DNA of 20,000 nucleotides from Plasmodiophora brassicae (lineage: Eukaryota), in the NCBI GenBank assembly GCA_036867785.1, contig CP145428.1:605472-625471 (forward strand). The letters are read 5' to 3'. Of this stretch, positions 17 to 20,000 are shown piece by piece; the stretch's first letter is position 1; every line of letters begins with the position of its first letter. The notes below the pieces were generated by a model. That model made no database searches. It saw nothing but the letters and a program-made list of their open reading frames with translations, and had not been told where the DNA came from. Position numbers and translations under genes: made by a program.

Positions 17-712
17 CACGCGCACGAATCTGAACCTGGTGGAGGACCCGACCGATCCTCTCAAATGGCACCTTCAAAGATACGTCGTCATGTGCTCGTC
101 GTCCTCCATGACGATTTTCACCGATGTGCTTCTTGCCTACAAGGTACGCGTCGGATATAACAGCGCAACCTCGTCAACCTGACCATGTCTGTAGGCCCTT
201 GTGATCGTTGCCAGTGCGTTTCTGGCGTTCAAGACGTCGCACGTGCAGATCCCGGCTATGAACGACTCGAAACAGATCGGCCTGGCGATTTACACCTCCG
301 GGTGGGCATGGCTGGCTGAACGTACAGGGACCAGATTGCTGACAATTGCCGCGCTAGGTTGATTTCGGTCATTGTGCTGCCTACGTTAGATCTCGTTGAT
401 GTCGGCAAACCCGATGCTGCCCTAGTTGTGTCATCGATGGCCATCTGGGCGTGTGCATCGTCGATTTTGACGATCGTGTTCCTCCCCAAAGTGTACAACG
501 TGACGACCGGTGCTCACAGCAATCTGACGGCGACGAATTCGGTTCGTCATATTCGCACGCCCGGGGATATCGCCGGCGGGTTCAAGACCATCGACAAGAA
601 TAAGACGTCGACGACACCGACCCAGTCGACCGGGAAAAACGCCGACTCGACTCGTAAACCGACCGAGTCGGGCGCTCCAGCTCAGCATGGCCTGTTCTTC
701 GAACCGAAGTGA
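17..712 (+). CDS. Class C (GABA-B-like, 7tm_3) G-protein-coupled receptor, 3' part; exons 17-143, 195-301, 358-712 (5' end lies upstream of the window)
   Basis: GT-AG introns 144-194 (51 nt) and 302-357 (56 nt) join in phase to give ...DVLLAYK|ALVIVASAFLAFKTSHVQIPAMNDSKQIGLAIYTSG|LISVIVLP...ILTIVFLPKVY. This matches GABA-B-type TM5-TM7 motifs (YK...FLAxxTxxVxIPAxNDSKxIG, FxPK). Stop TGA at 710-712; upstream acceptor AG at 15-16. Confidence 0.88.
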
Positions 713-749
713 TATGACCGGATGGGCCTCCTAATGCGAATACTATCAT

Positions 750-3007
750 TTAATAGCGAGATATTAACGAGCCCTTAGCAACGTTTGCATAGCATCGGAC
801 AGCCGCAATGTTCCGCTCACTCTGCTGGAGGCTGCGGTAGAACAGCAGTCGGTAGACGCGTTTGCTGAGCAGGCCGGCGACGTGCGCGTCGGAATACCGC
901 TTCACGTGTCTTGTGCCGCAAAAGGCCCAGCCAGCACGTGCCTGCTTCACCCAGGACACGTAATGACCTTCGTCGTGTCTAGCGACGTGGGCATTACCCC
1001 AGCGGTCGACAAGGCCGACCAGCTGGAGATGTGCACCTCCGACTTGGAGACCGCATGAGGCACCACATCCTGCACAAAGGAGAACTAAGATATTCCAAGG
1101 TATCTATCCATCATCGTTGTCGGTCCTGCACCTACCACCGCTGCCTTGCGCCGCGCCGCGCCGTACTGACCATCTGACCATCGAGACCTGGCTACTGGAC
1201 GGTTACGATGGGATCTTGCCGCACCAGCACCACTCGGCCTTGCTCGACCTTGCCCTTCAACTGGCGAACCGTCGTGCTGCGGCGCTCCACGTCTGGCCCG
1301 CGATTGCACGGCCGTTCGGAGGTGCACCTCCTGGCGACCGTCGTAGTGTGCTCTACCAGTAACGCGTCGGCAAGGATCGTCCGGCCGCGCGAACCACCCA
1401 CCATGACAACGGGGACGTCGCAGGGCGGGCGACTAATAATTGCACGGCCGGAGGTCGCGCACGTGTGACCTGCTCGACGAACCTGACGATCGCTCGATGC
1501 ATCGGTTGACCATTGGCCCAGATGACCGCATACGCCTGCATCAGCCGTAACAACTCCAATACGAAATCATCCGCGTCATGCTGTTTCCCGGCATCGAACG
1601 AACTCGTCGCCAGGTCAGTCTGGCTGATGACCTTGACGAGCTCAACCAACGTATCGGACGCCTCGTGCTGATACAGACGCGGGTTCATCATCTTATCGTA
1701 CAGGACAATCCAGGGCGCGAGGCCAGAGACACGTTCCCAGTCGGGCAATATTGCACGGACGATCTGCATCGGTGCAATGGCGTAGCAAACCGAACGGCAA
1801 ACGCCTGCCGCATCATTGTTCGATATGCCCCCTGGCAGTAACGTTCCAGCGTCACGCTCCTAAATGTCAATGTCAGCGTCGACTATGACAATTACAGTGC
1901 AGGATGTTGCGCTTCTTCGATCGGTTCGCGGTTGACGTCTTGGGCGGGCCGGCTCGCACGTTCTCCAGGAGTACGTTCAGATGCCTGCCGTCAATGCGCG
2001 CGTGTTAGATGTTAACTTCGCCTGAGTACCGGCGACGTCAGTTTCGAACCAGTTTGGGCGCTTTGAAACAGTGGTTCGCAGGTCCAGCAACAACTTTGCT
2101 CGTCCCCTTGTTTCGTACCTACAGCGGGCGGACCGTCAGTAACGCAGTCGAGAGGGGTATAAGGAACGCCAACCGATGCGGACGGCATGCTGCGCTTGTT
2201 AGCAGGGTCCTTGCTCACAGTCGTCGACATAACCGGCGGGGCCTATGCAACGTCACGCCAGGTTCAGTCTGCATCCCGCTCGCCGCACTGTATAGCAACT
2301 GACCACAGGGCGTGTCGTCGTGCCACAAAGCTTTCGGCGCTTCGCACCCTGATGACTTCGTTTCGGCTATGGAACACATCCATCGTCAGGATACGTGTCT
2401 GCAAACGGCGTCTAACGCTGTCAACCTTGCTTTCTCACGAGGTTGCCTGGCACAGCACCCGTCGGCAGCAGCGTCGTCGTCAACGGCCTCGTCCTCGTCG
2501 TCCCGGTTGCCCTGGCGCTGGCGAATGGCGGCTACAAACGCGGCAACCATGTCGTCGACGATGGCGCGGAATCTCAACGACGCTTGCTTCGTCATTGTGT
2601 TTGGTCGGGAGTCCAGGAAGACCAGCTCGAGCGCGTGGACGACGTAGTCGTGTGCGTGCCTCGAGCTCAGGCCGATCTCGACGAGCGAGCGCCCCACAGC
2701 GCCGATCAGCGCCAGAGCGTGCTTGAACGGTTGCCAGTCGATTGGCCCGGCGCCCAACGACTGTAGCAGGTCGGCGACGACGATCATATGTTCGGCCGGG
2801 TGGCGGTCGGCGTCGTCTGGTCGGTCGCCGACACAGGTCAGCACGCCGGGGCCCAGCGCCCGCGCGTGATACACAACGATCGGCCATTTTCCGCCGTGGA
2901 CCAGTCGACGGGCGACGGCCACCCGTTCTGGACGCGTTTGACAGCGGTGTGGACCTGCGCCGACAGCGTCTGGTCCCCCTTCGACAGATCGACGACTGCA
3001 TCGACTG
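750..3007 (-). pseudogene. Degenerate paralogue of the 3' part of the giant Ulp1-USP gene (end of core domain, linker exons and USP domain)
   Basis: 835-3007 aligns colinearly with 9935-12307 (roughly 80% identity by eye). USP motifs are retained (VCYAIAPMQ, QHDADDF, GHYVSWVK, YRLLFYR). Frameshifts at ~1048, ~1150, ~1465 and ~2888, plus a ~210-bp deletion at ~2458 corresponding to ~11536-11745. Confidence 0.85.
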
Positions 3008-4003
3008 CCGTCGGTGGCGACCTGCGGACGCTGGCTTCCCTGGACGCGTATGCCACCTGTAATGCCGGGCTCGTCTCGAATGCCCAGTTGCTGATGTGGT
3101 GCCCAGGTTCCGATTCTCGTTCGGCAGATTGCTGAACGTAAAACGTGGCGGCCCGCGTACCCGGCAACGGGAAACGGGCGCGCCTCCTGCCGTCTAGCGG
3201 GTCGCCGCCCGAATGTACGCCGCTCGTGTCGTCGCGTCGTCGCCGCCGCTAGCGTTGCGCCGAGTCGTTGCAATCGTCGCTGGTGCACCTACGAGGATAT
3301 GCTGAGCGCGTTGCGGTCACGAGGCAGCCGTGGCAGCTGTACGAGGCGTCGTCGCCGGGAGACGGGACGCCGCCCAGACAAACGTCACTGACCTGCGACG
3401 TCAACTCGGTCTGCTTATCACGCTGACGCATGGCGAACTGGCCGGCAGCGTTCGCCAGATCGTCAGCGGGTGCTCGTCGATTCCCGGCGCTGGATCGGTG
3501 GCGAAACCCGACACGGTGAGCAACCAACCAAAGGTGCCGCGACGCACCCCTACTGAAGCGGATCTTTAGGCGCTTCGCGAGCGACGCCGCGCCCCCGCCG
3601 AACAAGTTCTACGAGGGCAGGGGAAACCGGATCGCCACGACAGAAACGACAGCCGGGTGTACTTTGCACGAATATAATAACGACGGCCCGGGTGCCTCCG
3701 CCAGATGTTTTCAATCAAGATCGACTTGCGCTGGATCGCATCAGTCGACGTTGATATTAGAGCGTGATCATTTGCCTCCAGCGCCACCCAAGCCGTCCTT
3801 GACGGGATCTTATTCAGAGAATCGCTGCACGCCACCTGACCGCCCCTCCTCTTCCCATACCTGATTCTCTGGCCTATACCGATGATAACGGTGTCGTTCG
3901 AAACGATCTACCTATACGACCTCGTCGACAAGGGGCCGGGGATTTTGCGTTTATCACTGGTGCCGGAACTTTAGAAATTAAGCAACATTCGTGCAGATTC
4001 GTT

Positions 4004-5866
4004 TCACTTGCGCCTGGACTTGACAGGGTTGCCAACGACTTCTGGCCTGCGCTGGCGTTTGCGCCCAGTGTTAATGGGCAGCCGAAGCTTCATAACGCAT
4101 CGTCGCAAATAACGTGCCACACGGTTGATGCCTGCAGAGCCTTCGTCGACGTCGTCAACGACGCCTTGTTCTTTTAATATGCGCTTGACAATGCGGTCTT
4201 CCGCGGCTTTGAAGAAGCGATAACAGTTGGCTTGCCACCCACTGAAACCGTCGCTGCTCACAGGCTTCGGTGGCAACGACATTCCGGGCGGTTCCCACTC
4301 AGCTGTAGTGTACTGACGGACCCAGAACAGCGCATCGTAGATGGTATTCGCGTCGTTCCGTGTGAGACCTTGCCAATCCCATAGATCGGGGTCTTCTAGG
4401 GAGCGCGTAAGCGCGATCGTCGCGGCCCAAGCGGACGACATTACGCGAGGCAATGATGGGGCAGGCGCCATTGCCGACATGGGCCATGGAATGGTGTCCG
4501 CAATGTCGTCCGACCACGTAATCTTGCTCGGCGGAACAAGACCCAGCTGCGTCGCCAGTCTCTTTAGAGCCCGAGCATGACGGCACACGCGTCCAAGACC
4601 CTGGGCGACGCCCTTAGGGTTGTCTCGCTTCTCTAGAATGGCGTTGACGACGATGTCTTCAGCTGCTTGGAAGAAACGATGACAGCTGGCCTGCCAGCCT
4701 CTCATGGCACCCGGGTTAGTAGGTTTGGGCGGCAGCTCCATGTTGTCCGGTTTAAAGGTCATGAGGTAGTGGTTCTCCCAGAACAGGGCAGTATAGAAGT
4801 TATGTCTTGGCGATGAGTAGAGATGTTCCCGGTTCCAACACGAAATCTTGTCTAGAGCACGGGTATGCGCTATCGTTGCGGCCCAGGCGGATGACATTTC
4901 AGAAGGCAACGATGGGGCAGGCTTCACTTCCGATTCACTGGGCCAAGGGATGGCGGCGGCGATATCCGCTTCAGCAGTGCACGAGATGTCAGCACACCCG
5001 ACAACATTCAGCTCTCGATGGTTCGCCAGCGGAGACCTTCCGCTCCCCGCACTCGTGGTACTTGTCGGAGAAGGAATCGCGTTAGACGCTTCGCCGCTGG
5101 ATGCGTCAACAGTCTGCCGTCGATGACTTGCGACAGAACGACGACTGCCAGACGCTGAGGTATTTGGTGAGAGCTGACTCGAAATAGAAAGTGACTGATG
5201 TCTCCCAGGCTCCACATGGGCGGTATCCATCCTCTGCTGAACGTTACCCGTCCCACAATCAACTCGTCTACAGACCTCGTCAACGACTTGTTCGAGACGG
5301 ATGTTCCGGAAGCATAAATCCCCGTTGTCGAGAGCCAGCAACATTCCCAATTGTTCAATCGTGAACGGACGCTTGAACGCTGTCATGGAACGCGACCGTC
5401 CATCATGACAGATCCATATGGGCTGCCGCAGCGCAGATCCGATCCATGGACGAATCCTCGTTGGGACCTCACCGTCTACGATGCTTTGAGCAAGCGATTC
5501 GGGATTATTGGCGATGTCCATCAAATCCAGGTTCACGAATGCGAACGCGAGGCTTGTGGGGATCGTCAGGCGTTGGTAGTGGGGTGACATCAAACTGTCC
5601 GTATTGCCACAGGATGCGACGACGCGATCTTGGTCATATGTATACCCATCCGCCAGTGTCACCATCTTGTTCGTCACCCGCCCCGCCAAAGGACACGCGA
5701 ACCATGACGTCAAACCAAGAGCGGGTAGCGCGGCGTTGGTACGGTCGACCTCTTCCGACGTCATCCTTGACGGCATCTCCTCATATTCCGTCGGATAGAC
5801 TTGAAGATCAACGGCCAGCGCGCAACTCGTCGCGCATGTGAACAGGAACACCGCGAGGGCAGGCAT
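4004..5866 (-). CDS. Candidate secreted effector: signal peptide, two U-box-like domains, Ser-rich linker, two 153-aa tandem repeats, C-terminal bipartite NLS (620 aa)
   Basis: Long intronless ORF. N-terminus MPALAVFLFTCATSCALA is signal-peptide-like. FACPLAGRVTNKMVTLADGYTYDQDRV...SP...NLDL resembles the U-box consensus FxCPI...M.DPV...G.TYER..I. A second, degenerate unit is PWIGSALRQPIWICHDGRS...FRNIRLEQVVDE. The repeats DIAAAIPWP.../DIADTIPWP... are 459 nt apart. C-terminus RKRQRR...KSRRK. Confidence 0.8.
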   Translation of the reverse strand: MPALAVFLFTCATSCALAVDLQVYPTEYEEMPSRMTSEEVDRTNAALPALGLTSWFACPLAGRVTNKMVTLADGYTYDQDRVVASCGNTDSLMSPHYQRLTIPTSLAFAFVNLDLMDIANNPESLAQSIVDGEVPTRIRPWIGSALRQPIWICHDGRSRSMTAFKRPFTIEQLGMLLALDNGDLCFRNIRLEQVVDEVCRRVDCGTGNVQQRMDTAHVEPGRHQSLSISSQLSPNTSASGSRRSVASHRRQTVDASSGEASNAIPSPTSTTSAGSGRSPLANHRELNVVGCADISCTAEADIAAAIPWPSESEVKPAPSLPSEMSSAWAATIAHTRALDKISCWNREHLYSSPRHNFYTALFWENHYLMTFKPDNMELPPKPTNPGAMRGWQASCHRFFQAAEDIVVNAILEKRDNPKGVAQGLGRVCRHARALKRLATQLGLVPPSKITWSDDIADTIPWPMSAMAPAPSLPRVMSSAWAATIALTRSLEDPDLWDWQGLTRNDANTIYDALFWVRQYTTAEWEPPGMSLPPKPVSSDGFSGWQANCYRFFKAAEDRIVKRILKEQGVVDDVDEGSAGINRVARYLRRCVMKLRLPINTGRKRQRRPEVVGNPVKSRRK

Positions 5867-5964
5867 CGCTGGTCACCAGATTTCGAAGGTAGCTCCAACG
5901 GCAGCCGACGTGTCACGGCGGGCAGCCACGGGTGCCAGAGAGTCGCCCGCAAAACTCCGCAGAC

Positions 5965-8666: not shown

Positions 8667-9910
8667 ATGGAGCGTGCGCCGTCCTCCGACGCCTCCTACA
8701 CGAGGTCGCGATGCGCATGCCCGTTGGAGGGCGGTATACGGCACAGACGTGGAGTCCTCTCAACGTGAAGCAGGCGCCGACTCCATGGTGGGCGTCGCCC
8801 GCGACTGACTACTCGACGACGCTGCCGGTCGCCAACGCCGCCTACTGCATCGTCGTCCACGCCCGCCGGATATGCTGTTGTGTTCAGCCTCGCACGTCGC
8901 AGGACGCCGACACCCTGACGCGCCTGTCTGCCGTGCCTGCACCCGCTGCGACGTCGCCGCAGATGGGCAGCACGGCCCAATGGACTCACGACGACCATAT
9001 CGCGTCCTGCTGGACGCCTGCCGGCGTGCCCGATCTGTCTGTGTGAACGCCCTGCAGTTGCAGCACTGGTACGTGTCGTCGTCTGATGCACAGGCGTGCA
9101 GGCCCTCTAACACGCTGGACAGGACGCACCTGCTGGCTGTCGCCTGCCGTCGTCCGTCCAGCATGAGCACCTGCCGGGTAGCTGTCATCGTGTCTTGGCG
9201 GGGCTGGTCCAGCATCGCGCCGGCATGCTCCTCAGCTGAGGCGGCGCGCTGGACGTTCGCCGATCGTTGCAATCGGTCGCGCGCGCCGCTGTCGTGCACC
9301 ATGCGTTGATGGCGGACCGAGCAACCAAAGGTCTTCTCGCCGATGTCCCCGTCGGCCTGTCGAGCGGCACCTGCCTGCCCTGCAGGTCTTCCAGCAGGCA
9401 GGTGGCGCCCAGTGTCCGTTGCCGTTGATCGACATGCGCACGCCTATCTGCCGTCGACCACCCGCCGCCGGCGTATCGCCTCACCCAGATCACTACAAGC
9501 AGATTAGGTCGACACGCGCGAACGCCGGCCCTGCAGGTCGTCCTGGCGTCAGGCGGCGCCGGACGGCATCCTTTGCTGAAGTGGCCGGCGGTCGACAGCG
9601 CCGACGTCGTCCCTGCATGCGTGTCAAGCATGGCAGGTCAGACCAGACGAGCGATGCAGGCGTTTCGGGTGTCGCAGCATGCACGTGAGGCAGGTGATTG
9701 CGCTCGACTCCAAGCAAACGCGGTTCAGTACGTGTCAGAGCGGTCCTACTTCATTATCCCTGAGTTGTACTGCAGCGTGCGGCCTGGCAAGAAGGCGTGA
9801 GGTACAACTTCTCAACAACGCAAACGAATACAACGTCTTTTACGGATCATATGTTCCACCATTCTTTCTACTGCATGGCCAGGCAGATGAACTCGACGAT
9901 GGACAAGCTT
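8667..9910 (+). pseudogene. Possible decayed plus-strand gene, divergent from the recombinase
   Basis: Chain of overlapping plus-strand frames with protein-like patches (e.g. VQYVSERSYFIIPELYC, EVQLLNNANEYNVFYGSYVPPFFLLHG), downstream of the AT-rich stretch 8490-8520. No continuous ORF or recognisable domain. Confidence 0.25.
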
Positions 9911-10953
9911 TATTGCCTTCGCAGTGCGAAGCACCTGTAGAACAGGAGTCGGTAGACCCGCTTGCTGAGCAAGTCGGCGACGTGCGCGTCGGAATACCCT
10001 TGCACGCGACTGGTGTCGCAGAACGCCCAGCCACCACGTGCCTGCTTCACCCAGGACACGTAATGGCCTTCGTCGTGTCCAGCGACGTGGGCATTACCCC
10101 AGTGGTCGACAAGGCCGACCAACTGGAAATACGCATCTCCAACTTGGAAGACCGCCTGTGGCACCACATCCTGCTCAAAGAAGAAATCAGATATGCCCAG
10201 GTTTCCATCCATCATCGTTGTCGGGCCGGCACGTACCACCGCTGTCTTGCGCCGCGCCATACTGATGGTCTGACCATCGAGACCTGGCTCCTGGACGATT
10301 TCGATGGGATCCTGCCGCACCAGCATCACTTGGCCTTCCTCGACCTTGCCCTTCAACTGACGAACCGTCGTGCTTCGGTGCTCCACGTCCTGCCCGCGAT
10401 TGCACGGCCGTTCAGCAGTGCACCTCCTGGCGATCGTCGTAGTGTGCTCTAGGAGTAACGCGTCGGCGAGGGACGTTCGGCCGTGCGAACCACCCAGCAT
10501 AACAACCGGGAGCTCGCAGGGCGGACGCCTAGTGACATGGCCGCAGGTCTTGCACGCGTCGACGACATGCTCGACAAAGCCAATGATCGCTCTTTCGATC
10601 GGATGACCTAGGGCCCCGACAACCTCGTACGCCTGCATCTGCTGCAGCAGCTCCAGCGCGAAGTCGTCGGCATCGTGCTGTTGCCCGGGATCGAACGACC
10701 TCGTCGCCCGGTCAGCGTCGCTGATGGCCTTGATGAGGTCAACCAGGATGTCGGACGCCGCGTTCAGATCCAGACGAGGGTTCATGACCTTATTGTACAG
10801 GTCAATCCAGGGCGCGGGGCCGGAGACACGTTCCCAGCCCGGCAATGACCGCAAGATCTGCACCGGTGCAATCGCGTAGCAAATAGATCGGCAAACGCCT
10901 GCCGCATCATTGTTCGATATGCCCGCTGGCAGTAACGACCCAGCGTCACGCTC
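9910..10953 (-). other. USP/UCH (peptidase C19) catalytic domain, terminal exon
   Basis: Cys box LPAGISNNDAAGVCRSICYAIAPVQIL (upstream of the listed ORF start), QQHDADDF, CKTC zinc ribbon, His box FQLVGLVDHWG...GHYVSWVK...WAFCDTSRV and YRLLFYR. Confidence 0.88.
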
Positions 10954-13900
10954 CTAAATGTCAATTTCAGCGCCGACTATGACAATTATGCAGTATACCA
11001 CACCTGTGAAGGACTTTGTTCTTCTTTCACCGGTTCGCGGTTGACGCCTTGGGCGGGCCGGCTCGCACGTCCGCCAGGTGTACGTTCGGGTGCCTATGGT
11101 CAATGCGAGCGTGTTAGATGTTATCTTCGCCTGAGTACCGGCGATGTCAGTTTCGAACCAGTTTTGGCGCTGTGAAACGGCGGTTCGCATGTCCAGTCTG
11201 TGCCTACAGCAGGCGGACGGTCAGTAACGCAGTCGAGGCGGGGTACAAGGAATGCCAACCGAAGCAGGCGGCATGGTGCGCGTGTTAGGAGGGTCCTTGA
11301 TCACAGTCGTCGACGTAACCGGCAGAGGCCTCTGCAACGTTCCGCCAGTTCAGTCTACATCCCGCTGGCATCACAATATAGCAACTGACCACAGGGCGTG
11401 TCGTCGTGCCACACAACTTTCGGCGCTTCGCACCCTGATGGCTTCGTTTCTTCTGTGGCACACATCCATCGTCAGTCTGCAAACGGCGTCCAACGCTGTC
11501 AACCTGGCTTTCGCGCGACGTCGACTGGCACAGCTCGCTGGTGTCCCTTGACGAGTCATCGCTGTCGTCTTCCGAGCTGGACATCGAGAGGGCGTCTGCA
11601 GCGGCCTGTTGGGAACGCAGTCAGTACAGTAATCCGTGATCAGCAAAGCAGCCAGCGACGAACGATTCGCCTGCGTTTGACTGCTGCGCGGCTCTGCAGG
11701 GTAACGGCGCGTCGACTGCTCCTCGTTCGACGCGTAGGTCCATCGCCGTCGGCAGCAGCGTCGTCGTCAACGGCCTCGTCAGCCTGGTCGGCTCGGTTCC
11801 CCCGGCGCTGGCGAATGGCGGCGACGTACGCGCCCACCATATCGTCGACGATGCCGCGAAACCTCGACGACGTCGCCTCTGCCATCGGCCTTGGTCGTGA
11901 GTCCAGGATCACCAGCTCGAAGGCGTTGACGAAATAGGCATGTGCGTGCCTCGAGCTCAGGCCGATCTCGACGAGCGTGCGCCCCACAGCGCCGATCAGC
12001 GCGAGAGCGTGCTTGTAGGGGCGCCAATCGATGCGTGCAGCGCCGAACATCTCCAGTAAGTCGTCGACGACGAGGACATGCTCAGCGGGGTCACGAACGG
12101 CGTCGTTTCGACCGGCGCCGACATACGTCAGCACGCCGGGGCCCAGCGCGCGTGCGTGATACACGAGAATCAGGATTTTTTCCGCCGTCGACCAAGTCGA
12201 CAGGTCGACGGGAGACGGCCACCTGTCCTTGACGCCCTTGACAGCGGCGTGCACCTGCGTCGACATTGTCCTGTGGCCCTTGGACAAATGCACGACCGCG
12301 TCGACGCCCGCTGCCTGGACTAGCAGGCCGTTGTGCGGGTCGGCCAGGAACGAGCCCCAGTCGATCTTGGTGCAGGCGCCCCGCGCGTCCGGCGACGAGT
12401 GCAGGACGCCCTGGATGAGGGCCAGCGCCTCCCATAGCCAGTGCCGCTTCTTGCTCCCCTGGTTTGCCGACGGGAGGGGTACGTCGCGCCAACTCTTGCA
12501 CGCATCAAACAGCGTGACTGACCGTGGTGCCAGCGGCAACGTGCTCAGAGTCATCGGGTCAGACGACGCTGGCAGACGCACCACAGCCGATCGATCATGC
12601 AATGGCGGGACAATCATGACGACGTGCGCCAATACGGCCAGAAAACGCGACGACGGCGCCCAGCGTCCATCGGGGCGAGCACGCATCGCTCGACGCTGAG
12701 CGACGGTCTTGGTCGCAGACCCCATCAGATCGGACACATACTCATCGGTGATTTCGTCAGGAGGCGGGTCGACCAGGGCGACGAACGGATGGATGACGCG
12801 TCCCGACCAGCGGAGCAACAGCGTCACGTGGATGCCATCACGTCCCTGACGGTCCCTGGTTCTCTTGACGCGCTCCACCAACGCTTTCGTCACGTTGTAA
12901 TCGTCGTATCGTGATTCGGGTATGATGGACATCACGTCGCGCCACAGGGCCCGGTGTGGCAACCGTTCGACGCCCGGCGACATCCAATTCGTTGCGATCC
13001 AGTTGGAAAAACTAACGGTTGGCAGCGACGACAGCGACGGATCGAGCGTCGATCCACGCCTGCCCAGGCGGTACAGGGCGTCCAGCGACCGCATGAAACC
13101 CGCGAACAGGTAATCGTGCTCCTGGTCCAGGTCCGGTCGATCCAGAGCATGCCATACCCCGGGCGCCAAAATCTTCCTCTTCGCCAACTGATCGTACGTA
13201 TACGCAGCTTCAGTCTGCAGAAGGTTCAGAGCAATGGCGTCCGGCGTCAGCATTGAGCTCAGCCCTGATGAGATGACCAGGAACCACGACTGGACCAGGT
13301 AGTGGAGCGCATGCCGGTTTCCTCTGACGGAGATCCGCAGGACTGTCGACATCATGTCGACGTAGTCGAGGCTCTGAATGAAATTCATAAACTCGCCCTT
13401 GTTGATGACCAGGGCAAGCGGATCCATGTACGTGTCGTCGACGAAGAAGCGGCCAAACTGCAGAGACGAAGACACGTAGTCGAGAGGCGACCCGTTCGAC
13501 AGCCACGGCCCGACATTGCTGTCCGGCGTGGCCCGGTGGTAGAACCGACCTGGGTTGATGGACGAGCCGTCAAAAACCGCATTGAAACAGTCTTCGAAGA
13601 TCTGCAGCGCGTTCAGCGACCGCCGATCGATGTTGGACACGAAAGGAGACCGGCGACCGCGCTCCAGCCGGCGAAACATCGCGCGGTACATCTTGCGAGG
13701 GAACACGACATACTGCTCTAGTTTCCGCCGGAGATGTGCCCAGACGGCTTCCGCGTCCAGCAGCAGGAACGTGGCATCGTCGTTGAACCCATCGGCCTCC
13801 TGCCACATGCTGTTGAAGCACGCATGGCGCATGGTCAGGTTAGCGAAGTACTCAACGCGGTGCACGACAGGAACGCGTTCGGCGGCCATCTGGCGACAGA

Positions 13901-16900
13901 ATCGGATACGCTTCCGCATCGCGTCCCTCACCGGATTCAACGCCCGCTTTACGTCTTCCTTCTTGACCGGGCCGTACTTCCTAAGCGCGGCGGGCAACCC
14001 AGCGATCGACTTCCGGACCTTGCCCTTCTCGAACGTAGCGCGGACGGCCGCGTTCAGGGTACCGATGTGGGCAAAGCGGACGGGGTCCACCAGAACGCGC
14101 CCACGATCCCGCGTGCGCTGCGACACGGTCGCGTTGTAGCACGAGCGCGCGGATGCCATAACGGAACTGCAACGTGACTTGCATCCACCGAACCCGGCGA
14201 CCTCCCCGACCGGATAGTACGAGCTCTTGCGTGGCGCGATGCCACAGCCGACGTCCAGATCTCGCAGCGCTGAGTAGTCGCGGCAGACGGCAACGGCTGT
14301 GTTGTCGGGGAAGGGTTCGGCCGACACGTTGGACCCGATGTCGAAGCGCGCGCAGTCCATTAACGTTGACGGCCAGAACGTTCGCAAGTAGCGGCGCACC
14401 TCGAGAACGTCGGCGACACACGTCATTTTCATCAACGAGCGCACACCTAGCGCTTGCATCAACACCATGATGGAGCCGTCAAGCTCATCCTCAAGAGCCT
14501 CCAGGACAGCGCGGGCGGACGAAGGTGGCATAACCACGGGGCGGCGGTGGGCCCCAAACTGGTTAAGGTAGTCGTTGATCTCGTCCGGCAGATCTGCTTG
14601 GCAGGCACTGAACGCAGCGGAAACCGCCCTGGAGCAGTGCTGCTTGAGGGAACGATGCGTCCAACGGGGTGCGGCAGCGATTAAGAAGATCGAGACATTT
14701 GCCATGGGATGGCAGTCAACCTGACCCAACAGGAATCGCGGCAACTGCGCCACTGACCGCGACGCCTTCTCGTCGTCTCGCTGCACACGCAGATCGTGTA
14801 CCGAGCTTCCCGTATCCGACTGACGTGCACGGTAGTTCCCGTACCTCTGCATCATGTGCAGGAAGGCAAACGATTTGGCTTCGTGCACAGGAAAGTGCTG
14901 CAGCCAGGTCCCGATCGAAGTCGTGATTGCTTGCAAAGAGTCGACGTCAAACACCGGCCGCAATCGCGGGCGACCCCCGTGAGCGTCTGAGGCGCGACGC
15001 GCCTCATCCGCCAGATCGAAGCGGAACCGGCCGCAGAAGGCCTCTTTCCTGGGGGATCCGAAGACATCCCAGAAGCGTTCGCCGGCGAATTCGTCGAGGT
15101 GTATGACCTCAAACGTGGACAGATCCATTGCTGGTGCACTAGCACAGGGCGGCGTCGACTGGCGGACGAGGTGGTCTACGGAGGGGTCGATGCGTTCGTC
15201 ATCGCTTCCGTCGACATTGCTGGGGTCAGGGACGTCGCCGTCATCCATCGAATACGAAGAGTCAGAATCAGTTTCGACGTCGTCCCCGATTGCGTCGCCT
15301 GGGTCAGGGTCATCGCACTCGGAGTCTCCCACCGGATCCTCCCAATCATCACCGACTTCGTCACGCTCAGCGGCTTCGTGTGCATCCCTGATACGCTCCA
15401 GGTATTCTATTGTGCGGTCGTCCTCGTCCCCGTGTTCGACTGGATCTTTGTGCCCGGTGCACTCCTGCTTAGGCTGGCCATGTCCGTCGCAGACCATTAT
15501 CATCGGGGCCGGCGCCCTTTCACAACTGACACGTACCGCTGACGACGGCAGTACTTCGAGCCAGAGCATCGGCGAGCTGTTCCGCAGGTGCATCAGGGGT
15601 AGCGCTATTGTAGACAGTACCGCCAAAGCTGCCACTCGTTTGACCGGCAACGAGTCGTCGCCCCTTCCTAACCGCTACATACGAAGTCAGAAACGTACAG
15701 GAACAAGGAATCGCAAAGGCTTACAGCAACGACGTCTGACGTGCCAAACCGCAAAGCGATGATGTGGGACCGCCGTCTGTCGATCAGAGGGTGGACGACG
15801 TCCCACAGGCAGCCGAACGGGACACCGTATTCGTTGAAGAGGGCGTCCACGTTGTCGACCGACACTGGCGAATCCAAGAATAGGTCGACGATGACAGGAT
15901 CGGTGCTCAAACACACTGTGACCATCAAATCCAGCGGCCACAAGCCGCATGATGTAGAGAGCAGGCTACAGTGGCGCATCATCTGTGCACCAGACGATGG
16001 TGTCGCAGTGGTCTGCCGAAGCCATTGGTCGAATTTGTCACGAAGGCCTGCCGGTGAAGCCTGCAGGCAAGATACGACCTCTCGCCGATGGCGTTCAATC
16101 ATGCCTTGGTGTGGTGGCACGTGGTCGTGCCAGCACAAGTAAGACAGAAGCCAGCCAGAGACGTTGCGGAACGAATCCCAGGACAGGTCTTCGCAGGATT
16201 CGAACAGCGAGAAAACGGCGGGATCAGGAGCATATCCGTACGTCATGGTGACATCGACCAGGGTCAGGCGAATGTTGTCCGAAAGCGCCCGGTTCGAGGT
16301 ACACGTCGTCAGACGACGGCGCCCGGCGAACCACGCACGATGGTCAAATGTCGATTGCAGGAGATCATCCATATCGGCATCATCTGACGAAACGGGCAAA
16401 TCGACCGGGTCTTCCTCAGGCGAAGGATATGGGAGGTCGTCTTCGATAGCAGCGTCAGGAACACGCGTTGGTGCACCACCGTCCCCGGTTAAAATTGCCG
16501 TCAAGGAGATGCCAGGAGAAGCAGAGCGGTTGTACAGTGTGTCAGCTGGGCACGCGGGTAGGTCAGCTTGGCCCATTAGTAAGTAATTGGACGCGATAGC
16601 AACCCTAAGCCAGATTACCTACCATGACACGAGTCTTCAGCTCCCGCAGCGACGGCGACGGTGGCGACTTCTGGATGTGCTGCTGAAGTGTCGACGGATG
16701 CACCAGAAGGGAGCGGCCCAAGTCGGTCGGCGTGTTGCGCCGGCGCATGTGTCGGGTCAGCTGGTAGCGATATTTCGATTTCCATCAGAGACGATTTTGA
16801 ACCACCTAACTCAAAATAAGCAGGTGAATATCGCGTTTGCCGGTGTCGATACCAACCGTCCCCGTCGTGTTCGTCGTTCATCGCGTCGCCAACGGCGGTC

Positions 16901-18347
16901 AGAGTCGCACCCGATCGGTCGGTCGTGTGCGACTTGACCACGCCCTTCGAATTCGGAGCGAAGTCATCAAACTCGATCAGCGGTGCAACATCGAAAGGTG
17001 TGGACTCAATCGACCGTTGCTCGTCTTCGGCAGGCATGTCGTTACGGTTTTCTGCTTCTCTCGGGTAGTCGTGTCTTGCGATCTCCACCGTCCATCGCCG
17101 ACGATATAAGCCGATATCGGTTCCCGAAAACCTCATGGGCGACGCGTTCGCCAAGAAGTCAGCGTACTCGATCACGAAGACGCCACAGTCGGTTCCATTG
17201 CTCTGCATAGGAAACCGACCGCCAGCACGACGACAGGTCCATTCCACCTCGCATGGGTGGCCAGTCAGGTCCAGATACAAATCCAGCATGTACTGGATGA
17301 CGTTGCGACCGAACTCAGTACGAGGTGGTGTGTGCCTCAGCGAGTCGTACCACTCGACCAGGTGGAGCTTCGGTTGGACAACCATCAGGAACCAATGGTT
17401 AGCGTCACAGATCGGGAAAAATATGAGGTCATAGCCAAACACGGGCTCGTGGGCGAACCATCTGGCCCACGTTCTCACATTCGCGTAGGCGTACTTGCCA
17501 TCCTGCATCATCTTCGCATACAACTGCGAGTCGAGCGCAAAGCAGGTCGGGTAGCGTCCAGGCATCGTTACGCGACGCATTTCGTCACGCTTGACGATCA
17601 GAGACAGGCATGCCATGATAACGGCATCGCTGAGCCAGCATTCGTCGCGAAGGCTCCGGATATCCCCCTAAAGCAAAAGGCATTCGTGACGAATCAGACT
17701 GATGTGCTGATGCGACTAGCCGATTGGTAAGCATTGGCATGCATACAGGTTCGACGGCGACATTGCCGATTGTGTACGAGCGCCGTGTGGTATCGTTCCA
17801 GATCTGTTCGGCTGTGGCGTGAATGTCAGCAACGTCAGGAAGCTCGGTCTCGGCTTCTGGCTGTGACAGTGAAGGGGACTGCACACGCCGGTCACGGTCG
17901 TCCGAACTTGTAGGAGACGTCTCCGGTCGACGTGCATAATCTTCGTCGACAGATACATGTCAATATGGGGGACAAGAGGCCACCATCAGGCTTACTGTTC
18001 GAATTGCCATTAGGCGGCAGGATCGTTGAATTACACGCGACGTCTTCGTCGTCCTGGCCGGAACGATCCTGACGAGGCTCCAGTATTGCGAAGTCGTGTC
18101 CTTGCCTACGGTCTTCAAGCAGAATGCGAGATATAGCACTGAACGTCCTCTTGTCATCCTCAACGTATGGGTTCGAGTGACCGATGCAACTCCAGTAGTG
18201 CCGACGTTTCCGTGCTCGCCTTTTGATGGAACTCTGCAGTGGATCTGTATTGCCAAGCCGCCCCATGCCCTGTCGCTTTGATAACGATCTCGGTCAGCCC
18301 GCTTAGGCCGTTTCGACTAGCTCAAACCGTACCTTGCGACCGCCCAT
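9910..18347 (-). CDS. Predicted 11-exon ~2615-aa protein: N-terminal Ulp1/SENP C48 protease, unknown core, C-terminal USP C19 deubiquitinase. Exons 18347-18333, 18269-17996, 17940-17747, 17667-16623, 16566-15725, 15674-11664, 11605-11390, 11331-11260, 11203-11159, 11093-11004, 10953-9910
   Basis: Ten GT-AG introns of 63, 55, 79, 56, 50, 58, 58, 56, 65 and 50 nt, most with YTRAY-like branch sites. They remove the in-frame stops and preserve phase (total 7848 nt = 2616 codons). Splicing restores the N-terminal motifs of both domains (NVAVEP|GDIRSLRDECWLSD; LPAGISNN...CY). Confidence 0.68.
9935..12307. repeat. Intact member of a diverged direct duplication with 835-3007
   Basis: Colinear similarity at an offset of ~9.1-9.3 kb, covering exons and introns. 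Confidence 0.88.
17075..17667 (-). other. Ulp1/SENP (peptidase C48) catalytic domain
   Basis: DIRSLRDECWLSDAVI...YDLIFFPICDANHWFLMVV...EWYDSL...FPMQSNGTDCGVFVIEYA. His, Asp, oxyanion Gln and Cys are all present. Confidence 0.92.
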
Positions 18348-18702
18348 AGTAGCAAAGAATATTGCCCAACTGAGAGGTATGTGGGGCAGTACTCAGGTCA
18401 GTACGGGTAGAGAGTCTGTAACGAAGCGGTGCCAATTGCAGATCGACTTTGGAAATGGACGAGGGCGGCAGCTTTGCCCGGAGGCCGCAACGAAGGCCTC
18501 GCCCTCGTCTGCCGGAAATAGCCCGCGTCCGAGGGATCAATCCAGAATAGCGACCCAACCGTGTCGGTATTTCCAAAAATAGATTCCTGACACTATCGAC
18601 AGCCTCGGAGTTTGGCTAAGGTCTACATTCTCGCGCGACCGTCGCAGAAGTCCGAAGCTGCCGGGAGGTCGGGTGGCGTTGACCACCACCGCGTTCGGGT
18701 TC

Positions 18703-19698
18703 AATTCCGATAGACGGGGGCTGCAATAATAAAGCGCCCGAAAAGTCCGAAGAGCTCCTGAGCGAAGACCAGTGATCGGATCATCCGGAAACCGACGTCA
18801 ATCGTGTTGCGATTTAATTCGCCACTATCTGCTTCGAGGCGGATCGAATTCGGATAGACGGGGGCTGCAATAATAAAGCGTCCGAAAAGTCCGAAGAGCT
18901 CCTGAGCGAAGACCAGTGATCGGATCATCCGGAAACCGACGTCAATCGTGTTGTGATTTAATTCGCGACTATCTGCTTCGAATCGGATCGAATTCGGATA
19001 GACGGGGGCTGCAATAATAAAGCGTCCGAAAAGTCCGAAGAGCTCCTGAGCGAAGACCAGTGATCGGATCATCCGGAAACCGACGTCAATCGTGTTGTGA
19101 TTTAATTCGCGACTATCTGCTTCGAATCGGATCGAATTCGGATAGACGGGGGCTGCAATAATAAAGCGTCCGAAAAGTCCGAAGAGCTCCTGAGCGAAGA
19201 CCAGTGATCGGATCATCCGGACACCGACGTCAATCGTGTTGTGATTTAATTCGCCACTATCTGCTTCGAATCGGATCGAAATCGGATAGACGGGGGCTGC
19301 AATAATAAAGCGTCCGAAAAGTCCGAAGAGCTCCTGAGCGAAGACCAGTGATCGGATAATCCGGAAACCGACGTCAATCGTGTTGCGATTTAATTCGCCA
19401 CAATCTGCTTCGAGTCGGATCGAATTCGGATAGACGGGGGCTGCAATAATAAAGCGTCCGAAAAGTCCGAAGAGCTCCTGAGCGAAGACCAGTGATCGGA
19501 TAATCCGGAAACCGACGTCAATCGTGTTGCGATTTAATTCGCCACAATCTGCTTCGAGTCGGATCGAATTCGGATAGACGGGGGCTGCAATAATAAAGCG
19601 TCCGAAAAGTCCGAAGAGCTCCTGAGCGAAGACCAGTGATCGGATAATCCGGAAACCGACGTCAATCGTGTTGCGATTTAATTCGCCACAATCTGCTT
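18703..19698. repeat. Subtelomeric 144-bp tandem repeat, ~6.9 copies
   Basis: Units start at 18703, 18847, 18991, 19135, 19279, 19423 and 19567 (AATTCGGATAGACGGGGGCTGCAATAATAAAG...). Units differ by only a few substitutions; the last is truncated. Confidence 0.97.
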
Positions 19699-20000
19699 AG
19701 GGTTTTTTTAGGGTTTTAGGGTTTTTTAGGGTTTTTTTAGGGTTTTTAGGGTTTTAGGGTTTTAGGGTTTTAGGGTTTAGGGTTTTAGGGTTTTAGGGTT
19801 TTAGGGTTTTAGGGTTTTAGGGTTTTAGGGTTTTAGGGTTTTAGGGTTTTAGGGTTTTAGGGTTTTAGGGTTTTAGGGTTTTAGGGTTTTAGGGTTTTAG
19901 GGTTTTAGGGTTTTAGGGTTTTAGGGTTTTAGGGTTTTAGGGTTTTAGGGTTTTAGGGTTTTAGGGTTTTAGGGTTTTAGGGTTTTAGGGTTTTAGGGTT
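19697..20000 (+). repeat. Telomere (TTTTAGGG)n
   Basis: Perfect TTTTAGGG array from ~19783 to the window end, G-rich strand pointing outward. Proximal units have T3-T7 variants. Confidence 0.98.

Follow-up and report, generated by a model that had tools for sequence, protein, structure and literature searches.

Can one polypeptide join a SUMO protease to a ubiquitin protease? The question is raised by a 20,000-nucleotide (nt) stretch of Plasmodiophora brassicae contig CP145428.1 (hereafter the window, to whose positions all gene coordinates refer), on the minus strand of which the original prediction had joined a series of open reading frames (ORFs) between 18347 and 9910 into a single gene, with a SENP/Ulp1-type domain (MEROPS C48) at the N-terminus and a USP domain (MEROPS C19) at the C-terminus. 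We consider it fairly probable, at somewhat better than even, that this is indeed a single, transcribed, 13-exon gene encoding two proteases, with a longest frame of 2578 amino acids (aa), and we hold any specific cellular role of the long protein with far less confidence. The spliced transcript fuses the C48 frame to the publicly annotated gene PBRA_009661, and the catalytic motifs of both predicted protease domains appear intact. The gene is not hidden, as had been claimed, since 2087 of its 2578 codons correspond to PBRA_009661 and exons 6-13 are present in public models; what is new is the in-frame C48 extension, and with it the C48 + USP architecture, the subtelomeric family context with a neighbouring putative recombinase, and strong spliced antisense transcription.

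We rebuilt the gene from the ATG at 18347 to the stop codon at 9912-9910. As a result, the ten proposed introns were all found to be of the GT...AG type and 50-79 nt long, and they joined eleven pieces in phase into 2617 aa with no internal stop, in agreement with the eleven exons and approximately 2615 aa first put forward. Assembled contigs of four public runs from four studies, the RNA type of which is a guess, were placed on positions 9600-18700 and gave exact joints for eight of the ten proposed introns, together with two further in-frame minus-strand introns, 10236-10171 (66 nt) and 16856-16806 (51 nt). With these two added, the final model comprises 13 exons, 12 introns and 2578 aa, and the predicted exon number and length were revised. 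A YTRAY branch-like motif lies 5-25 nt from the 3' end in eight of the ten proposed introns (18 nt in intron 17995-17941), and the G+C content of the introns (0.40-0.61) is below that of the exons, of which exons 4, 6, 7, 12 and 13 show a G+C content of 0.64-0.75 at third codon positions (GC3) with 0.41-0.48 at second positions (GC2). The exons are as follows.

18333 to 18347, minus strand: exon 1 (proposed), five codons from the ATG at 18347-18345; drawn from the sequence only, with no contig cover, and the weakest part of the model; an alternative in-frame start ATG lies at 18266
17996 to 18275, minus strand: exon 2, basic N-terminus with RKRR at 18212-18201; in phase; GC3 only 0.57
17747 to 17940, minus strand: exon 3, in phase
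16857 to 17667, minus strand: exon 4, Peptidase_C48 domain at about 17637-17074; GC3 0.70
16623 to 16805, minus strand: exon 5, linker between introns 16856-16806 and 16622-16567; the 181-nt middle piece of a 3041-nt contig of run X1
15725 to 16566, minus strand: exon 6, 281 codons of no known family; contig joints on both sides; conserved in paralog XXQ38586.1
11664 to 15674, minus strand: exon 7, orphan core, 1337 codons in an uninterrupted 4011 nt; RRSPFV motif at 13655; GC3 0.75
11390 to 11605, minus strand: exon 8, acidic/basic linker
11260 to 11331, minus strand: exon 9
11159 to 11203, minus strand: exon 10
11004 to 11093, minus strand: exon 11
10237 to 10953, minus strand: exon 12, first part of the USP domain (Pfam PF00443); motifs conserved in paralogs
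9910 to 10170, minus strand: exon 13, USP His box; stop codon at 9912-9910

The introns, with the number of runs in which each joint was found among the joints listed, are as follows.

18332 to 18276, minus strand: first proposed intron
17995 to 17941, minus strand: second proposed intron
17746 to 17668, minus strand: proposed intron, one of four runs (X1)
16856 to 16806, minus strand: additional intron, one of four runs (X1 only)
16622 to 16567, minus strand: fusion intron, 56 nt, holding the stop codon of the C48 ORF (TAA, 16617-16615) and the ATG of the public models; two of four runs, X1 (depth 22, short side 181 nt) and X8 (depth 6.3, short side 143 nt)
15724 to 15675, minus strand: proposed intron, three of four runs
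11663 to 11606, minus strand: proposed intron, four of four runs
11389 to 11332, minus strand: proposed intron, four of four runs
11259 to 11204, minus strand: proposed intron, four of four runs
11158 to 11094, minus strand: proposed intron, four of four runs
11003 to 10954, minus strand: proposed intron, four of four runs
10236 to 10171, minus strand: additional intron, four of four runs; also used by the PBRA_009661 model

The fusion intron is canonical, with a CTAAT branch site, and its removal deletes both the stop codon of the C48 ORF and the annotated ATG with the frame kept, so that the C48 and USP domains share one continuous reading frame after splicing. Indeed, the 3041-nt contig of X1 (14268-15674 + 15725-16566 + 16623-16803 + 16855-17465) runs from the C48 catalytic domain past the supposed gene boundary into the core, with three introns removed. 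The three junctions singled out for transcript support by the original prediction, 11663-11606, 15724-15675 and 16622-16567, were all recovered, in four, three and two of the runs, respectively.

We then compared the model with public annotation. The core frame matched one protein at 100% identity, XXQ29550.1 (P0001; 'Cysteine proteinase [Plasmodiophora brassicae]', 2052 aa), whose 90% cluster also holds a 302-aa model (P0016) and PBRA_009661 (P0017; CEO95394.1; UniProt A0A0G4IJP8; 2087 aa; 'USP domain-containing protein', P. brassicae e3). The latter is from the same locus and has the same eight 3' exons (exons 6-13), and model residues 495-2578 agree with it at 2082 of 2084 positions. XXQ29550.1 removes two in-frame stretches of 17 and 18 aa (window 11450-11500 and 10310-10363), which are probably over-predicted introns, since PBRA_009661 keeps both and the contigs retain them (X5 and X9 contigs are unbroken through 11390-11604, and one X5 contig through 10236-10919). 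The join of the exon 6 piece, core, linker exons and USP has been publicly annotated for years, and four fifths of the gene with it; within the gene, only the 494-aa SENP-like extension is new. We found no paper naming PBRA_009661, and none on clubroot that deals with C48 or C19 peptidases, although supplementary tables, which were not covered, may list the gene.

All three public models begin with MGQADLPAC, at the ATG inside the fusion intron, and are without the 494-aa N-terminal part that bears the C48 domain. This would be in keeping with two separate genes, a SENP-like protease of about 500 aa ending at the TAA at 16617-16615 and PBRA_009661; what is seen spliced would then be an infrequent read-through transcript joining the two, without a protein of its own. 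The sense fusion joint was found in two of the four runs only, at a depth of 6-22, and the 2036-aa paralog XXQ38586.1 is likewise modelled without a C48 domain; the start of that model, however, may be truncated in the same way. A similar C48 domain was present in none of the 2858 candidate proteins of 614-2000 aa, a size range that leaves out a fusion of about 2600 aa. On the other hand, in X1 and X8 the spliced form was assembled across the C48/core boundary with no intron-retaining contig among the contigs listed, the stop and start codons both lie inside a canonical 56-nt intron with its branch site, and the splice leaves an open frame of 2578 codons. We thus regard two separate genes as unlikely.

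A Pfam scan of eight ORF pieces of the giant gene gave matches in two of them, Peptidase_C48 and UCH, both above cut-off, and the two domain assignments of the original prediction were thereby upheld. PF02902 Peptidase_C48 matched the ORF 16618-17667 with 74.2 bits (cut-off 20.7) over profile positions 2-211 of 217. The nearest solved relative of this catalytic domain of about 190 aa is human SENP2 (E 2.8e-17), with human SENP1 also close, both members of MEROPS C48, and H254, D271, Q318 and C324 align with the catalytic residues of SENP2 (chain 1tgz_A), giving the His-Asp-Cys triad and the oxyanion Gln. Unlike in SENP1 and SENP2, the C48 domain here is predicted to head a protein of about 2600 aa whose C-terminus is formed by a USP domain. 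The catalytic and other motif residues of the two domains were placed as follows.

17397 to 17395, 17346 to 17344, 17205 to 17203 and 17187 to 17185, minus strand: His, Asp, Gln and Cys of the C48 domain, from the SENP2 alignment
10914, 10881 to 10879, 10680 and 10554/10545/10422/10404, minus strand: conserved Asn, Cys, QHDADDF and zinc-ribbon Cys of the USP domain in exon 12, from the paralog alignment
10065 to 10063 and 10017 to 10015, minus strand: His and Asp of the USP domain in exon 13, from the His box

PF00443 UCH matched the ORF 9913-10953 with 30.9 bits (cut-off 23.9), over profile positions 76-253 of 254 only, and it scored 21.9-24.5 bits on the public models. The paralogs conserve a Cys box (LLPAGISN-x-D-x-AGVCR-x-IC[YF]AIAP), QHDADDF, a CxxC...C...C zinc ribbon and GHY...CDT, probably corresponding to the Cys box, QQD-like box, zinc ribbon (CxxC...C) and His box shared by the USP family (MEROPS C19, PF00443). 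The Cys box (GISNNDAAGVCRSICY...Q) is kept in the five aligned rows that cover it, and no profile aligns it; its C2278 we take to be the USP nucleophile, from the Cys-to-Gln spacing (+7) of the family. Compared with canonical USPs, this domain is very divergent, with about six residues inserted between the conserved Asn and Cys. The best PDB sequence match, to yeast Ubp8 chains over the His box GHY...CDT, is non-significant (E 0.08), and the USP family profile had no match in the PDB. The C-terminal domain is best described as a divergent but motif-complete, putative USP (C19) deubiquitinase. USP-fold enzymes can prefer SUMO, as is reported for USPL1 (PMC8983731). No description of C48 and USP in one protein was found in full-text literature searches (supplements not covered), in line with the view of the original prediction that the architecture is unrecognised, whereas each catalytic domain is an ordinary member of its family.

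Between the two proteases lie about 1700 aa of lineage-specific sequence, and the large unfamiliar core that had been anticipated was borne out, in that neither a family of Pfam or NCBIfam nor a PDB profile matched it (Pfam was silent on the 316-aa and the 1344-aa frame alike), and the Protein Atlas held no usable match. An exhaustive HMMER search of 1.84 billion representatives gave ten matches at E <=0.001. Seven of these are short Logan fragments, two are short proteins of P. brassicae, and the tenth is a metagenome protein of 990 aa. The 990-aa protein (P0002) is the sole long relative of the core, with 23% identity over 914 aligned positions (window 15047-12399), and another homolog (P0012) runs from window 13016 into the USP domain, overlapping both. 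Scans of metagenome contigs and of viral contigs yielded no relatives of the locus. AlphaFold2 prediction of 901 aa of the core from 12 alignment rows was too poor to use (predicted local distance difference test score, pLDDT, 43). In the 2578-aa model, no Walker A, DEAD or HExxH motif and no transmembrane-like segment was found by motif and hydropathy scans. Pfam detected no ubiquitin-like protein (Ubl) domain and inspection by eye no LRGG/QTGG-like site, so that the idea of a self-processing polyprotein, also raised in the original prediction, is unsupported.

The gene belongs, by sequence, to a small family expanded in P. brassicae. Its paralog XXQ38586.1 (P0019), on another P. brassicae contig, is 48% identical over 2040 aligned positions (model 568-2576) and covers exon 6, core, linker and USP. 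Shorter P. brassicae paralog models have 872 aa (core end + USP), 454, 418, 413 and 210 aa, those of 413-454 aa consisting of the USP only. Furthermore, a partial duplicate of 9928-12350 (core end, linker and USP), which we call copy B, lies on the minus strand at about 828-3065, approximately 9.1 kb from the original. It shows 79-91% DNA identity, has lost 209 nt in one deletion and carries at least seven indels that shift the frame; because introns and exons are conserved to the same degree, it is a pseudogene.

Several observations weigh against a single gene with a single long product. Introns 1-2 and the start codon are without contig support, there being no cover above about 18110. No contig of the four runs joins the C48/core part to the USP part, and none spans from 17465 to below 14268; the link from core to USP is drawn instead from the uninterrupted 4011 nt of exon 7 and from the homologs that overlap both sides. 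Contigs may merge overlapping transcripts and are no proof of single molecules, quite apart from the guessed RNA nature of the runs. The three public starts within the fusion intron and the restriction of its joint to two runs, given above, belong here too, and the other two runs show a plus-strand intron, 16579-16640, that overlaps it. The Cys box falls outside the Pfam UCH match and its catalytic Cys was assigned by eye, and the presumed recombinase frame downstream of the gene, described below, is without Pfam or PDB sequence match. Thus, of the claim that one gene fuses C48 and USP, the C48-core splice was found in contigs of two of four runs, whereas no molecule with both proteases was seen.

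Contig depth bears on the same point. It is 5-40 over 14160-17800 and about 600-3600 over 9600-12900, so that summed depth steps up along one frame, the USP-encoding end reaching 50-100x the depth of the C48/core part. It follows that the bulk of the RNA coding for the USP either is not full length or stems from near-identical copies elsewhere, and a full-length mRNA can be at most a minor species. Behind the extra 3' signal may be an internal promoter, other copies or the two together. Contigs 95-99% alike at 13650-14207 and 14021-14360 differ from the window mostly at third positions (16 of the 24 listed differences, 12 of the 24 synonymous), indicating at least one more near-identical expressed copy elsewhere. 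These variant contigs include a 1-nt deletion at 13794 and a difference at 13847 (Phe to Val) that is also found in the public proteins XXQ29550.1 and PBRA_009661. In the deep part, 9600-13300, the contigs are short, and loose ends at 10004, 12003, 13604, 13650 and 14360 lead to sequence outside the window. Downstream of the stop codon, a 60-nt GT-AG intron on the minus strand (9784-9843) was found in X8 only, in a contig that continues below 9600; it is either a spliced 3' untranslated region or read-through towards the next gene.

These depths could mean that the locus mainly yields a short product, the USP alone or the core end with the USP, from a promoter in exon 7 (about 12000-13300) or from near-identical copies, with the long frame seldom made and an evolutionary leftover. 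The step in depth lies below about 13300, annotated paralogs of 413-454 aa and 872 aa have just these compositions, the unit duplicated in copy B has its start near 12350, and the variant contigs speak for another expressed copy. However, what dominates over 12479-12760 is antisense, so these contigs do not represent a short sense mRNA. The contigs contain three canonical plus-strand introns, 12479-12533 (55 nt), 12706-12760 (55 nt) and 16579-16640 (62 nt), and over the first two the dominant contigs (depth 400-1600) are spliced with plus-strand GT-AG ends (GTACGT...CTGAC...CAG), from which we conclude that they are antisense RNA directed towards the telomere. Since this spliced RNA holds no ORF above 143 aa over 11700-13700, it is regarded as non-coding. 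Moreover, a coding signature persists throughout exon 7, its 48% identity to XXQ38586.1 over the whole length indicates selection on the long form, and the short public models may be fragments. A mainly short product is accordingly a doubtful alternative, though one of some weight, and it is partly compatible with the single two-protease gene that we favour.

If the long form of that gene is made, the product would be arranged as a basic N-terminus resembling a nuclear localisation signal, a SENP-type C48 deSUMOylase, a core of about 1700 aa, a charged linker and a divergent USP. We infer that it could act as a nuclear tandem deconjugase, with a basic RKRR N-terminus and no signal-like segment, in which the C48 domain would remove SUMO, and the USP domain ubiquitin or a Ubl, from the same targets, with the orphan core as a possible scaffold or targeting part. 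The USP module would also be expressed separately at a much higher level, through an internal promoter or near-identical copies. P. brassicae being an intracellular plant pathogen, one may ask instead whether the protein is secreted as an effector and removes SUMO or ubiquitin from proteins of the host plant. Effectors of the CE clan and USP-like effectors are known from bacterial pathogens, and subtelomeres often hold effector families; but the proposed N-terminus is basic and not hydrophobic, the most hydrophobic 19-residue windows of the model are internal and weak (scores <=1.6), and 2578 aa is very large for a secreted effector. We consider an effector role very unlikely.

The setting of the gene suggests another kind of origin. 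The window ends in a (TTTTAGGG)x36 array at 19706-20000, and TTTTAGGG is given as the telomere motif of P. brassicae in PMC6823432 and PMC11191646, so that the gene is the first inside a chromosome end. Between the two lies a 144-bp satellite of 6.9 copies (18703-19698, 98% matches), about 350 bp from the gene; its minus strand shows a 331-aa ORF, which is spurious. About 1.4 kb downstream of the giant gene, on the same strand, is a 786-codon frame (8509-6152, first Met 8326) with a Cys/His-rich segment and tyrosine-recombinase-like motifs (LRADE, GK, HSIRK, ARH and LYY), whose spacing R361-K396-H491-x-x-R494-H517-Y526 was read by eye. Its two best PHROG matches are integrase families, weak at E 0.0018 and 0.0026, and its Atlas look-alikes (0.94-0.97) are eukaryotic clusters with Phage_integrase, NDC10_II or DUF3504. 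The frame is probably a Crypton-type tyrosine recombinase; this is a lead only, because the Pfam and PDB sequence searches were silent and the single-sequence structure model was too poor (pLDDT 35, unusable).

The neighbouring putative recombinase matters because, as Kojima and Jurka (2011, PMC3212892) report, the oomycete Crypton CryptonF-2_PS and some of the CryptonS elements code for a C48 peptidase in addition to their recombinase. In these oomycete elements a tyrosine-recombinase gene is accompanied by a C48-peptidase gene, and here a probable recombinase gene and a C48-encoding gene adjoin on the same strand in a protist pathogen; compared with those elements, the protease gene here is 8.4 kb long, with a USP and an orphan core encoded in it as well, and the host is a rhizarian. 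The giant gene could accordingly be cargo or an accessory of a large Crypton-like element that relies on the recombinase at 8326-6152 for its movement, with proteases that serve the element rather than the cell. The multi-copy family with decayed copies and the subtelomeric location fit such an origin as well, and it is compatible with the single two-protease gene. Against it, no terminal repeats or element boundaries were found, the direct repeats of at least 40 nt in the window being the satellite, the telomere and copy B only, and the recombinase call is weak. Described Cryptons are, besides, far smaller than such an element would be. We think cargo status improbable on this evidence.

As part of the favoured two-protease gene's mechanism, the family would probably descend from, or still be, selfish subtelomeric or mobile DNA, with deconjugation used against SUMO/ubiquitin-dependent silencing. 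An extended version, to which we attach only a slight likelihood, would make the locus a unit of an undescribed class of large subtelomeric mobile elements of Rhizaria, Crypton-related and mobilised by a tyrosine recombinase, whose 2578-aa accessory protein erases SUMO/ubiquitin silencing marks at insertion sites or chromosome ends, with the spliced antisense RNA as part of the regulation. A long form, if made, would amount to a naturally occurring tandem of SUMO protease and ubiquitin protease, with which SUMO-ubiquitin cross-talk, such as the reversal of SUMO-targeted ubiquitination, could be tested using one polypeptide. The analysis also corrects the annotation of a clubroot-pathogen gene and locates at the end of a chromosome a protease family that is expanded and lineage-specific, beside a probable recombinase gene of a transposon type that carries C48, which may give a lead on what transposon-borne C48 proteases do. 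The practical value is modest.

In the remainder of the window, the 'neighbouring GPCR' (G-protein-coupled receptor) of the original prediction is unverified, because Pfam found no GPCR family in the 25 window ORF pieces. Rfam and tRNA scans of the window found no Rfam family and no tRNA. A 622-codon orphan frame on the minus strand (4007-5872), with no Pfam family and no similarity to the giant gene, has a hydrophobic N-terminus and contains IPWP...APSLP..MSSAWAATIA..TR.L twice, as an internal duplication.

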